From a virus, in IMG/VR virus record IMGVR_UViG_3300006339_000005, positions 62,587 through 126,586 of that record: a DNA stretch of 64,000 bases. One strand, given 5' to 3'. Positions 59,191 to 62,717 of the stretch are shown in pieces; the stretch's first letter is position 1, and each line of letters opens with the position of its first letter. The notes below the pieces were generated by a model, which saw only the letters and a list, made by a program, of their open reading frames with translations, was not told where the DNA came from and made no database searches. A program made the translations under genes and the position numbers.

Positions 59191-59529
59191 TTATAGATTA
59201 GCGTTCTTACGATCCGGATTATGAAATAATGACGTTTCGTTAGTTAGTTCATTTAATGCGGGGAACTCTTGGTCTGGATGTAATTTAATAGCCCTTTCCA
59301 AAAGCACTTCTTCAGTTTCTACAATGTCTTCATCTGGAATACAACAATCTACAGGGCAAACTTCCTGACACGCTTCTTCACCATGAAATCCTACACACTC
59401 TGTACATAGTTCAGGATCAATATAATAAAAATCTAATCCTTCACCTTCTCCGTCATCTATTGCTTCGTTTGGACACTCGGGTTCACAAACGCCACAGTTA
59501 ATACACTCATCGGTAATTATTGTTGCCAT
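59191..59529 (-). CDS. 2x[4Fe-4S] ferredoxin (YfhL-like)
   Basis: [12 protein letters not shown] and [18 protein letters not shown]. Confidence 0.93.
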
Positions 59530-60785
59530 TTATGTTGCTCCAGCCCTAAATGTTTTTTAATTTCCGTTACAATAACTTCTGAAGGCATAGTCATTCCGCC
59601 TGCAACATGAGGTCCTGCATATACTCTCTTATTGTTTTCAAGAATAGCTTTGACTTCTTTTGCCAACCAACCAGGAACATTAAACTCTGGAACAAATATA
59701 TGTTCTGCATTTGCTGTCGCTTCTTGAATCTCCAACGTTGGAAATGGTCTAATAGTTTTAATCTTAACCAACCCAACTTCTATACCTTGTTGCTCTAGTA
59801 AGCGTATAGCTTCTCTACTTTGTGAAACAGCCGTTCCAGATGCAACAATTAAAATCTTTCTATCAATATTCATAGTATCTATCAAACCATCTAATAATCT
59901 AATAGTATGTTTGCGAGATCGTTCAACTGCCGCATGAACTTCTTGTTGCCAAGATGCATGAGTTGAATAACTAATGTAATTTGATTTCATAACAAATGGA
60001 TCACGCATCATTCTTATTGGTGCTGATTCCATATCCATACAAGTAACTGGTGACCTATAAGGATCATATGGTGTTAAGCACAAATCAGCTGATGGTAGTT
60101 CAACAGTATCTTTTGTATGTGTTACAAAGAATCCATCACAACAAGTTGCTAATGGAACGTGAACATCTGGTTGCTCTGCAACAATAAATCCTTTTAATAT
60201 AAAATCAAATAAGTCTTGTGCCGTTTCAGCGTGCCATACCATCATACCAGTCTCTAATAGATAATGCATTTCTAATGTATCTGGTTGGATACTTAAAGGA
60301 GAATTAACTCCTCTACAAGTTACACACACTTGAATTGGTAAGCGTGAGCCTGCCCACATTGGAAAGTTCTCCATAGCTCTTAAAGTACCAGGTCCTGCTG
60401 TAGTAGTGAACACTCTATGTCCACCAAACGATGCACCAGCACATTGACCCATTACTGCAAATTCACTTTCACCTCTAAAGTATTCATCCAAGTATCCTTC
60501 TGCATAAAGCTCACCAATTAATGCGGCCGCTTCGCTCTGTGGAGTGATTGGATATGCAACAGAGGTACCAACACTACAACGCCTGATAGCTTCTTTAATA
60601 ACTTCACTACCTGTAAAGAAAACTGGTGTTTGTTCTGAGTTGTAAAAGATGTCGTTAACATCAGTATAAGTTTGACCAACAGCATTTTTCTGGCCAAGCA
60701 ATTCGTGTGTTGATCTAAGAACTTTTGTTATTAGTTCTTTAGTTGGTTCTATTTTAGATGGTGCTTCAGCAACTGTAGTTGTCAT
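59517..60785 (-). CDS. 2-oxoacid:ferredoxin oxidoreductase alpha subunit (ForA-like)
   Basis: [31 protein letters not shown]. Confidence 0.92.
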
Positions 60786-60901
60786 TTAATTTTCCTCTTT
60801 CTTAATACCCAATAGTTTTTTAATCAATTCAAGCATATATTTTATCTTACTCATAGTACAGGCACAACAAGATTCTTTAACGGTAGTTGTCATTTAATTT
60901 T
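60775..60901. repeat. 19-bp direct repeat pair
   Basis: GTAGTTGTCATTTAATTTT at 60775-60793 and 60883-60901. Confidence 0.85.
60786..60893 (-). CDS. 35-aa mini-ORF between beta and alpha subunit genes
   Basis: MTTTVKESCCACTMSKIKYMLELIKKLLGIKKEEN; ATGA overlap upstream, TAAATG junction downstream. Confidence 0.5.
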   Translation of the reverse strand: MTTTVKESCCACTMSKIKYMLELIKKLLGIKKEEN

Positions 60902-61744
60902 TTCCCCTTGTTCTCGCAAATAATCTTTTGCTCTGTCAGATATTTCTTCTTCAAAACCGTAACGGTCTTTCTCTACATCAAATGCATCTTTCATAACTTC
61001 TGGAGTTGGTATTGAATACTCAATGTTGCATGATGTATATGCTTGAATGTATGTAGACCCAAACTCTCTTGCAACTAGTATTGCTCGTCTAACAGAGCGA
61101 GCCACCCTTGCAGGATTTGTAGGTGCTATACGACATACATAATCAAGTTTTGCAACTCTTGCCAATCCCAACATATCCATCTTCTCATCTACTTTACCAC
61201 GGGGTGACATCTTTGCAACTAGACCCTTTTGAGTCATTCCACTTTCTTGTCCACCTGTGTTACCGTAGATTTCATTGTCCAACATAATGGTTGTAAACTT
61301 CTCATGCCTAAACCAACTATGCATGAGTCCTTGAAATCCTATATCAACTAGTCCACCATCACCACACATTACTATTACATCTTTATCTTGTTCTGGAAAT
61401 CGTAATTCTAATCCTCGTTTCAATCCAGATGCAACAGCATTTGTATCGCCATAGTTTCCATAAATGAATGGAACATTACCTTGACTTATTGCTAACCTTC
61501 CACAACCAGCCGTACCACAAATAATGGTATGCTCTGGTTTTGGTAATGCAAGAAATACAATTCGTATAAAAAGAGTCATAGCACATCCGGCACACATTGG
61601 ATGTTCTTCAATTAACTCTTTGAACTTGCCCATGTCCTTAACTTTTTTAGGCTTGCCATACTGACCATGTTTAACAAGGTCTTGGTACTCAACAGGCAAG
61701 TGTTCTAAATAGCCAGGGCTAGGCCTTACAGTTGCTAATGACAT
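60890..61744 (-). CDS. 2-oxoacid:ferredoxin oxidoreductase beta subunit (ForB-like)
   Basis: CAGC, GTAGC, ThDP motif GDG..DN, GNTGGQESG. Confidence 0.93.
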   Translation of the reverse strand: MSLATVRPSPGYLEHLPVEYQDLVKHGQYGKPKKVKDMGKFKELIEEHPMCAGCAMTLFIRIVFLALPKPEHTIICGTAGCGRLAISQGNVPFIYGNYGDTNAVASGLKRGLELRFPEQDKDVIVMCGDGGLVDIGFQGLMHSWFRHEKFTTIMLDNEIYGNTGGQESGMTQKGLVAKMSPRGKVDEKMDMLGLARVAKLDYVCRIAPTNPARVARSVRRAILVAREFGSTYIQAYTSCNIEYSIPTPEVMKDAFDVEKDRYGFEEEISDRAKDYLREQGEKIK

Positions 61745-61745
61745 A

Positions 61746-62717
61746 TTACACAGATTCCAATACTTTAGCGTTACGTTGAGCTTTGGCTTCTTGGTCAGCT
61801 TTTAGTTTAGCTTTGAATTCAAGTTTACGTTCTTTCTCTTCAGCTTTTACTCTGTCTATAACAGCTTGTCCTTCATCAGTAATGTAACAGCGATTAACAA
61901 AACGTCCACCGATACTTTCTGAGTCTTTCATTTCATCAAGCCCTTCCATACTCTGCTTACCAATTTCTAGTATACACGGAGTATACAATTGGACAAACGT
62001 TGGGCCTACTTCACGAGCAATATAAATGCCATGACGGATAGCTTCTGCAACTCTATTAGGTTTACTAACAGTTAGGATTGTTGAATAATGACAGCCAGCC
62101 TCTCGTGCTATTTCCACTAGGCGGACTTTTTCAAACTGCTTCCCCTTGGGAGCCATTTTTGCAACAAAGCCTTTTTGCATAAGTCCTGATTCCTGTCCAC
62201 CCGTATTAGCGTACAGCTCGTTATCAAAACATATAGTTAAAAAGCGTTCTTGTCTAAACCATGACTGCATAGTCATATCTAAACCAATATCAACAGTAGC
62301 ACCATCACCAGCTAAGACTATTACATCTTTAATCTTATTAGGAAATCGTTTTGCTAAAGCTCTTTGAAGTCCACTAGCAATAGCATTTTGATTACCGAAC
62401 AAGCTATGGATATTTTGAACTGCTACGTGGGGCCATACTAATGATGTACAGCCTGTACTTCCAACGAATACCGTATCTTCTGGGTTTGGAATACTTGCTA
62501 GGATATAACGAAACGCTATGCTCTCTGGACAGCCTGCACATAGTGAATGCTGTTCAATTAATTCTTTACTGCTCCCAATATCTTTCCAGCCTCGATCCGT
62601 ATTGCCATATGTAGAGTTCTCAACTAGTTCTTGATACTCTGGGGGCATAATATCTGCTAGTTCTTCACATAGGGCGATCTTGCTAGATTTATTTTTGCTT
62701 GGCGTATGCTGTGCCAT
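61746..62717 (-). CDS. Second 2-oxoacid:ferredoxin oxidoreductase beta subunit (PorB-like)
   Basis: CAGC, GSTGC, GDGAT..DN, ANTGGQESG; start refined to 62717 behind AGGAG. Confidence 0.93.
   Translation of the reverse strand: MAQHTPSKNKSSKIALCEELADIMPPEYQELVENSTYGNTDRGWKDIGSSKELIEQHSLCAGCPESIAFRYILASIPNPEDTVFVGSTGCTSLVWPHVAVQNIHSLFGNQNAIASGLQRALAKRFPNKIKDVIVLAGDGATVDIGLDMTMQSWFRQERFLTICFDNELYANTGGQESGLMQKGFVAKMAPKGKQFEKVRLVEIAREAGCHYSTILTVSKPNRVAEAIRHGIYIAREVGPTFVQLYTPCILEIGKQSMEGLDEMKDSESIGGRFVNRCYITDEGQAVIDRVKAEEKERKLEFKAKLKADQEAKAQRNAKVLESV

Follow-up and report, generated by a model that had tools for sequence, protein, structure and literature searches.

The closest described counterparts of the genes considered here occur in VP_99 and VP_1723, T4-like Nitrospirota phages from Lake Baikal, which carry a ferredoxin, a gene resembling the beta subunit of pyruvate:ferredoxin oxidoreductase (POR), an additional 2-oxoglutarate:ferredoxin oxidoreductase (OGOR) subunit and an Fe-S assembly gene, and for which a modulation of the reverse tricarboxylic acid (rTCA) cycle has been proposed (Coutinho et al. 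2020, PMC7678222). Here we describe a comparable cluster at 59191-62717 in a 64,000-nt stretch of viral DNA (hereafter the window), namely the last 64 kb of the linear 126,586-bp IMG/VR virus record IMGVR_UViG_3300006339_000005 (~33% complete according to CheckV). On its minus strand it encodes two beta subunits and one alpha subunit of 2-oxoacid:ferredoxin oxidoreductases (OFORs) and a ferredoxin. As in this cluster, the Baikal genes belong to T4-like myoviruses of a nitrite oxidizer using the rTCA cycle, include a host-derived ferredoxin (>80% identity) and a POR-beta-like 'ferredoxin oxidoreductase', and are proposed to modulate dark carbon fixation. The contig thus shares with the Baikal-type module the combination of an OFOR beta subunit with a host-like ferredoxin in a T4-like phage, whereas the extra ('epsilon', CO_dh-type) OGOR subunit and the Fe-S assembly gene, which in Baikal are part of the module, are absent from it, both kinds of Fe-S gene being found in sister contigs. 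Comparing the sets by description, the present one further differs in its host phylum (marine Nitrospinota rather than freshwater Nitrospirota), in joining PorA with two betas from two enzymes, and in showing several independent acquisitions with discordant gene histories. Hence, the kind of module is already known, contrary to an earlier note on this DNA, made from its letters alone, which did not know of such genes as a common auxiliary metabolic gene (AMG) set; new are the Nitrospinota host phylum, PorA with betas from two enzymes, the wide marine distribution, and the repeated capture or exchange. Full-text literature searches aimed at marine Nitrospinota phages with such genes found no paper, and to our knowledge Nitrospinota viruses are almost undescribed. 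The Nitrospinota themselves account for most oceanic nitrite oxidation and for much of the CO2 fixed in the dark ocean.

Among cellular enzymes, the closest systems are the O2-tolerant, five-subunit forms of POR and OGOR found in Hydrogenobacter thermophilus, Nitrospira and Nitrospina (porEDABG/forDABGE type), of which no structure exists (PMC13768988). The phage alpha, beta1 and beta2 are close orthologs (75-89%) of the Nitrospinaceae subunits, with the same domains and motifs; in contrast to the host, the phage holds 3 of the 10 subunits and has no gamma, Fer4, CO_dh-like or ForA component. Its ferredoxin shares the Cys pattern and C-terminal helical extension of the YfhL/Allochromatium vinosum (Alvin)-type ferredoxins, which supply its best PDB matches (2fgo, 1blu, 2zvs, and 1rgv), but is ~30 residues longer at the C-terminus than these solved proteins.

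Identity and host origin of the subunits

The cluster comprises the following genes:

61746..62717, minus strand: beta1, a PorB-type beta subunit with the thiamine pyrophosphate (TPP) and proximal [4Fe-4S] domain, 323 aa (Pfam TPP_enzyme_C; host-operon identity)
60890..61744, minus strand: beta2, a ForB-type beta subunit corresponding to the host's second OFOR (annotated as OGOR), 284 aa (Pfam TPP_enzyme_C; host identity)
60786..60893, minus strand: a mini open reading frame (ORF) of 35 codons, no Pfam match
59517..60785, minus strand: alpha, PorA-type, with domains I and II only and no CoA-binding domain III, 422 aa (Pfam POR_N and PFOR_II)
59191..59529, minus strand: a free YfhL/Alvin-type 2x[4Fe-4S] ferredoxin, 112 aa (NCBIfam NF033683)

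Successive intergenic distances from beta1 through beta2, the mini ORF and alpha to the ferredoxin are 1, -4, 0, and -13 nt, indicating that the genes are tightly coupled; this arrangement, with the intact motifs that the earlier note had read, was confirmed by Pfam and direct reading. The beta1 frame is open up to a TTG at 62750, and the ATG at 62717, which the note's coordinates had implied, is preceded by an AGGAG ribosome site and is the likely start. In the Pfam comparison, TPP_enzyme_C was assigned to both betas (E 9e-18 and 1.3e-17), POR_N (E 1e-57) and PFOR_II (3e-19) to alpha, and Fer4 families to the ferredoxin. The alpha motif AYPITPQSE aligns to that of the PFOR alpha 9bt4_B, so that this protein has the two domains and the YPITP substrate/TPP motif of an OFOR alpha subunit. 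The betas, 46% identical to each other, display CAGC, STGC, GDGATVDIG, DNELYANTGGQ, and YTPC (beta1) or CAGC, TAGC, GDGGLVDIG, DNEIYGNTGGQ, and YTSC (beta2); neither has lost the GDG..DN motif or any of the four Cys that bind the proximal [4Fe-4S] cluster, and both thereby have the domain VI signature (GDG..N, four Cys) of OFOR beta subunits. In the ferredoxin, the eight Cys expected of a 2x[4Fe-4S] protein are all present, in the pattern CxxCxxCxxxCP ... CxxCx8CxxxCP; with the 8-residue insert in its second motif, its C-terminal helical extension, and an NF033683 score of 100.7 bits, above the equivalog cut-off of 86, it belongs to the YfhL/Alvin type.

The Nitrospinaceae have two OFOR operons: operon I codes for rubrerythrin, a CO_dh-like subunit, alpha1, beta1, gamma1, and a 93-aa 2x[4Fe-4S] subunit, while operon II follows sucD and codes for a 107-aa ORF, alpha2, beta2, gamma2, and an 87-aa 2x[4Fe-4S] subunit (the adjacency to sucD is seen in a Nitrospinales chromosome). 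Phage alpha and beta1 are each ~84% identical to their operon I counterparts (beta1 83%), alpha sharing 88% of its residues with Ca. Nitromaritima and 82-85% with dozens of Nitrospinaceae genomes or metagenome-assembled genomes; both are thus orthologs of subunits of the five-subunit (Hydrogenobacter-type) POR/OGOR with a CO_dh-like fifth subunit. Beta2 is 75-89% identical to the operon II beta, reaching 89% with the second beta of the Ca. Nitromaritima single-amplified genome AAA288-L16, and the ferredoxin is 79-82% identical, over its full length, to a Nitrospinaceae gene outside both operons. On these sequence similarities, all four phage genes come from marine Nitrospinaceae, with Ca. Nitromaritima closest (80-89% identity), and from three separate host loci.

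The earlier note had suggested phage-encoded subunits of rTCA-type multi-subunit Por/For enzymes and a nitrite-oxidizing host. Both suggestions gain support from the 80-89% identity to Nitrospinaceae, the nearest cellular relatives, and from the phylogeny it had called for, in which the phage subunits nest inside the Nitrospinota five-subunit OFORs and not among the Kor/Vor enzymes of heterotrophs; a marine member of the Nitrospinaceae, chemolithoautotrophic nitrite oxidizers, is therefore supported as the predicted host. Its further proposal of a host link by CRISPR spacers yielded no convincing match: a search with a 20-kb portion of the window, equal to one sixth of the phage contig, against 120 Nitrospinota genomes returned only chance-level, imperfect matches of 27-56 nt (E 4e-4 to 8e-3), and none of three that were checked lies in a repeat array.

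Since the published Nitrospina gracilis annotation (Table S1) lists the porE(93 aa)-porC-porB-porA cluster as POR and the forA/forB genes beside sucCD as OGOR, the latter without the extra subunit, we assign alpha to PorA, beta1 to PorB, and beta2 to ForB at the level of annotation and sucCD adjacency; NCBIfam scores do not separate POR from OGOR for the phage subunits. The resemblance of beta1 to PorB and of beta2 to ForB that the note had named therefore stands, whereas that of alpha to ForA, and with it the pairing of alpha with beta2, does not: alpha pairs with beta1, both being ~84% identical to one host operon, and only beta2 comes from the OGOR (for) operon. The ferredoxin, rather than being an OFOR subunit, is a free protein from the third host locus.

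Tblastn searches of the whole 126-kb contig and of six related viral loci (L002-L007) gave no match when queried with the gamma, alpha2, and CO_dh-like subunits of the host or with its two small Fe-S subunits, and the extra subunit (PF02552) is absent from the 126-kb contig. The contig (~33% complete) and L002-L007 thus do not contain the full set of alpha, beta, gamma, Fer4, and CO_dh-like subunits; scans of IMG/VR with host ForA and host gamma, by a method that detects close relatives only, also returned nothing. Given that domain III is essential in all PFORs (PMC13768988), the phage set, having no gamma (domain III), cannot act alone and would have to work inside host complexes. As predicted from its genes, then, the phage encodes parts of enzymes and not an enzyme.

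These parts are well conserved. Columns invariant among the hosts are kept at 172/172 positions in alpha (versus 78 host sequences), 142/148 in beta1 (71 sequences), and 143/146 in beta2 (34 sequences). Between phage copies dN/dS is 0.13-0.16 for alpha, 0.08-0.10 for beta1, and 0.05-0.13 for beta2, with host-host pairs at 0.03-0.06, and the constraint on beta2 is as strong as among hosts. The phage copies are under purifying selection. These values bear on the idea that the subunits are dominant-negative, displacing or trapping host subunits so as to stop CO2 fixation and divert reductant and ATP to phage replication, an analog being the cyanophage CP12, which blocks the Calvin cycle. The set is indeed incomplete and mixes two enzymes, with one alpha to two betas, and phage alpha evolves ~3x faster at non-synonymous sites than the host copies; nevertheless, we regard such a role as improbable, given that all cofactor ligands and every one of the host-invariant alpha positions are kept, that beta2 is constrained as in hosts, and that a phage would have a use for the ferredoxin and, in sister phages, for NifU/IscA only where Fe-S enzymes are meant to be active.

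Phage residence and repeated acquisition

Positions 1-49,600 of the window code for a T4-type gp15 tail-sheath stabilizer, a 1082-aa sheath, a tail tube, TerL, a UvsX-like recombinase, two helicases, and a primase. A strand switch follows, with genes on the minus strand from 49.8 kb to 63 kb (the island), and 59191-62717 stands at the far end of this block. The position of the cluster 1.3 kb from the very end of a linear, incomplete contig, and the island's orientation on the strand opposite to the replication and structural genes, could suggest host DNA misassembled onto a phage contig, or recently captured passenger genes without a role. Several observations render this highly improbable. 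Contigs from independent sequencing runs, identical to 48785-49999 and 49620-50025, bridge the boundary between replication genes and island, across which sequencing depth is flat, so that the contig-integrity check asked for in the earlier note gave no chimera. The same arrangement recurs in independent assemblies from several studies: the four separate assemblies L108-L111 repeat the order of beta1, beta2, alpha, ferredoxin, aldehyde dehydrogenase (ALDH), thioredoxin-like, proline dehydrogenase, saccharopine-dehydrogenase-like, and aminoacyl-tRNA synthetase (aaRS)-like genes. The last 1.28 kb of the window aligns to them at 73-82% DNA identity, and L110 and L111 run 5-7 kb past its end, into small ORFs and a cell-wall hydrolase. 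The host neighbors (CO_dh subunit, gamma, rubrerythrin, and sucCD) are absent beside the phage genes, and genes of three distant host loci are fused in one phage cluster. The GC content at third codon positions has moved to the phage value (0.20-0.275 in the phage copies and 0.19 in phage TerL, versus 0.36-0.50 in host genes), and the phage copies form clades of their own under purifying selection.

Within the window, phage genes lie on one side of the cluster only, because the contig ends on the other; they lie on both sides in L112, L006, L005, L004, and L122, which accordingly show the flanking by phage genes expected of AMGs. In L005 alpha is 3 kb from T4 baseplate wedge genes; in L004 alpha-beta stands directly behind an endolysin-like gene and baseplate wedge genes; and in L006 and L112 alpha-beta1-beta2 lies between a T4 RNase H and a PD-(D/E)XK nuclease. 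The genes also combine the host derivation, phage-like composition, and purifying selection that characterize AMGs. The OFOR and ferredoxin genes are phage-borne and not the product of a chimera. An almost intact form of the stretch recurs in 14 or more marine metagenome runs, which belong to at least four studies; a search of the GenBank phage collection gave no DNA match, the only protein hits being 24-28% identical and in records resembling host carry-over.

In the alpha tree, the window copy falls in a phage-only clade (support 99), which is sister to Ca. Nitromaritima (97) and nested inside Nitrospinota, while the alphas of L004 and L005 adjoin other Nitrospinota lineages. An approximately unbiased (AU) test rejects a single viral alpha clade (delta lnL 75.6, p-AU 0.007), for a group that was named after the tree was seen. 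The L004 alpha differs from a host single-cell genome by a dN of 0.016 and a dS of 0.38, pointing to a recent capture. Beta2 is found on 11 viral contigs, and its tree needs at least four changes of host/virus label. In L108 and L111 the alpha is closest to that of the window and beta2 comes from a different host clade; hence, the two genes have different histories. The tree topologies thus indicate that the phage copies were acquired or exchanged several times. Further, L122 has the order beta1-beta2-NifU-ferredoxin-IscA with no alpha, which, together with the 11 contigs carrying beta2, makes a beta subunit, a ferredoxin, and Fe-S assembly genes the common denominator of these clusters. The beta subunit is the preferred phage cargo.

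Around their OFOR genes, the sister phages (L112:746-1777 and neighbors; L122; L111:10682-11053) code for glyceraldehyde-3-phosphate dehydrogenase (GAPDH), a class II ribonucleotide reductase, 5-formyl-tetrahydrofolate cyclo-ligase, and a trypsin/PDZ protease, as well as NifU-like and IscA/HesB-like Fe-S proteins and a cyclic-nucleotide (cNMP)-binding protein. A search of the window's 126-kb contig for NifU, IscA, the cNMP-binding protein, and GAPDH found none. A recent host capture of the sister-phage NifU was considered and rejected, as it is only ~50% identical to host NifU-domain proteins. Two further viral contigs of ~40% GC, one of them 66 kb long (L125 and L126; IMG/VR 3300020603_000193 and 3300020200_001050), carry a beta2-like gene that is 63-66% identical to that of the window and branches outside all sampled Nitrospinota copies; they may represent a phage of another rTCA host.

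Neighboring genes and small elements

Besides the genes of the cluster, the island contains the following elements:

62790..63062, minus strand: a hydrophobic 90-aa ORF upstream of beta1, 81-87% identical and at the same position in L108, L110, and L111
62740..62757, minus strand: a GC-rich hairpin between the 90-aa ORF and beta1, a putative terminator-like match
60879..60901, minus strand: direct repeat copy 1 (ribosome-site region, ATG, and first codons), 22/23 nt identical to 60771-60793, 108 nt apart
60771..60793, minus strand: second copy of the direct repeat, located where alpha actually starts, matching copy 1
52388..59151, minus strand: co-directional downstream genes, namely ALDH, thioredoxin-like, three small ORFs, tyrosine phenol-lyase-like, proline dehydrogenase, and saccharopine-dehydrogenase-like (Pfam, NCBIfam)

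The downstream block is tightly packed, with gaps between -20 and +39 nt all along the run of genes that begins with the ferredoxin, and its order is syntenic in L108 and L109, minus the lyase. The tyrosine phenol-lyase/tryptophanase-like gene (54378-55739) scores 643 bits with TIGR02618, below the cut-off of 720.7; missing at this position in L108 and L109 and not found in the five Nitrospinaceae genomes examined, it looks like a late insertion into the island. The 507-aa ALDH (57628-59151) is 59-60% identical to an ALDH present in only 2/5 Nitrospinaceae genomes and adjoins the OFOR-ferredoxin module in most sister phages. At the other boundary of the island, 48705-49648 holds a 283-aa class II aaRS-like gene (tRNA-synt_2) followed by tRNA-Asn(GTT), and the aaRS-like gene occupies the same boundary in L108 and L109.

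The mini ORF is in frame with alpha, from which it is separated solely by the TAA directly before the alpha ATG, and the direct repeat makes up its first 23 nt. Sister phages have no mini ORF, alpha there overlapping the beta2 stop directly, and it is probably a lineage-specific insertion or a junction relic. We considered a decayed tandem copy of the alpha 5' end and rejected it, as only the first 23 nt are clearly shared and the remainder is indistinguishable from AT-rich background. Pfam and PHROG scans gave no match for the 90-aa ORF at 62790..63062. Two stretches, 63063-64000 (~940 bp) and 50506-51114 (609 bp), contain no ORF of at least 60 aa and no Rfam match, a scan of 49.5-64 kb with Rfam having matched the tRNA alone; the former stretch is kept at 73-82% DNA identity in sister phages.

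The T4 late promoter TATAAATA has two copies in the window and none in the island, a single relaxed match there, at 50769, being remote from the OFOR genes. The motif is strongly depleted in the window (2 copies versus ~12 expected), and the copy at 4472-4479 sits 40 nt upstream of the tail-sheath gene, where a T4-type late promoter is expected. Scans for consensus sigma-70 promoters and terminators gave matches at or below the shuffle level. A metatranscriptome run yielded a few short contigs from the island, including two exact ones (57031-57181 and 58918-59098). We do not take the RNA runs as evidence of expression, the shares being small and the contigs short and mostly 90-95% alike; assembled contigs cannot separate RNA from carried-over DNA.

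Proposed hybrid enzymes and their implications

With moderate confidence, we propose that a T4-like jumbo phage of Nitrospinaceae carries host-derived PorA, PorB, and ForB, along with a presumably low-potential Alvin-type ferredoxin, to sustain the carbon metabolism of its host. Phage PorA and PorB would form the catalytic core of the five-subunit POR, and ForB would act as the TPP/[4Fe-4S] subunit of OGOR, each joining complexes in which gamma and the remaining subunits are still supplied by the host. Oxic water is the habitat of these hosts, OFOR enzymes are normally O2-sensitive (PMC3578206), and O2 is known to damage the proximal cluster in domain VI (PMC13768988). The phage cores would most likely replace oxygen-damaged, fast-turnover subunits once host gene expression fails, with the ferredoxin adding electron-carrier capacity and the NifU-like and IscA-like proteins of the sister phages serving in Fe-S assembly. 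The predicted net effect is that flux through both ferredoxin-dependent rTCA steps would be sustained during a long infection. In its logic alone, this arrangement would be a dark-ocean counterpart of cyanophage psbA/psbD and petF, where the phage likewise supplies a damage-prone core and an electron carrier, with repeated host-phage exchange and purifying selection; however, the proteins and the pathway are unrelated, and damage replacement is established for D1, whereas for the OFOR cores it is our suggestion.

The direction of the reaction can be read in two ways: its use in the host is carboxylation, and the island neighbors (ALDH, tyrosine phenol-lyase-like, and proline dehydrogenase) fit an oxidation of 2-oxoacids derived from amino acids. 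Accordingly, the hybrid enzymes might run oxidatively, burning pyruvate and 2-oxoglutarate from host amino acids to acyl-CoA (with ATP via succinyl-CoA synthetase) and reduced ferredoxin for phage biosynthesis, the phage ferredoxin being the acceptor. Alvin-type ferredoxins accept electrons from an OGOR in Thauera aromatica, and 1rgv is among the PDB matches of the phage protein, both of which would suit this alternative. So would the reversibility of OFORs (PMC13768988) and the presence of the OFOR genes in one tight co-directional block, mostly conserved in sister phages, with ALDH, the lyase-like gene (a pyruvate producer), proline dehydrogenase, and the saccharopine-dehydrogenase-like gene. 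On the other side, these enzymes serve autotrophic carboxylation in the host (PMC3578206), the lyase is, from its distribution, a late add-on, and other phages hold the OFOR-ferredoxin-Fe-S module in differing surroundings (RNase H, protease, and baseplate genes). On balance, we consider an oxidative role the less likely of the two.

Several points weigh against the proposal that the phage sustains carboxylation in its host. An oxidative role would suit the co-directional catabolic genes equally well or better; the host is linked through gene similarity alone, with no CRISPR match found; few contigs of the RNA libraries match the island, and these could stem from DNA or from transcripts of the host; and the constraint on phage alpha is relaxed about threefold relative to host copies. 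The assignment to POR or OGOR derives from the N. gracilis annotation and sucCD adjacency, not from enzymology or a comparison with Hydrogenobacter, and the order of the 'POR' operon (D-A-B-G-E) is that of H. thermophilus for; gene order, being contradictory in this respect, was not relied on as a guide. Finally, the contig being ~33% complete, other parts of the genome could contain the subunits or Fe-S genes that it lacks.

More tentatively, the proposal of sustained carboxylation can be extended: phages of the ocean's dominant nitrite oxidizers may routinely supply the oxygen-labile cores of both carboxylating rTCA enzymes, betas first, along with ferredoxin and Fe-S assembly factors, swapping these genes with Nitrospinota lineages as cyanophages do psbA. 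We would sooner doubt than assert this generalization; if true, virus-encoded subunits in hybrid host-phage enzymes would sustain a measurable part of the dark carbon fixation in mesopelagic waters. The locus offers sequence evidence that ties a widespread clade of T4-like jumbo phages to a host, and a concrete case in which the hybrid assembly of a multi-subunit Fe-S enzyme from host and phage proteins can be put to the test. The phage subunits are natural variants of the poorly understood five-subunit O2-tolerant OFORs, and the preference of the phages for beta subunits points to the part that may limit the lifetime of these enzymes in oxic water.

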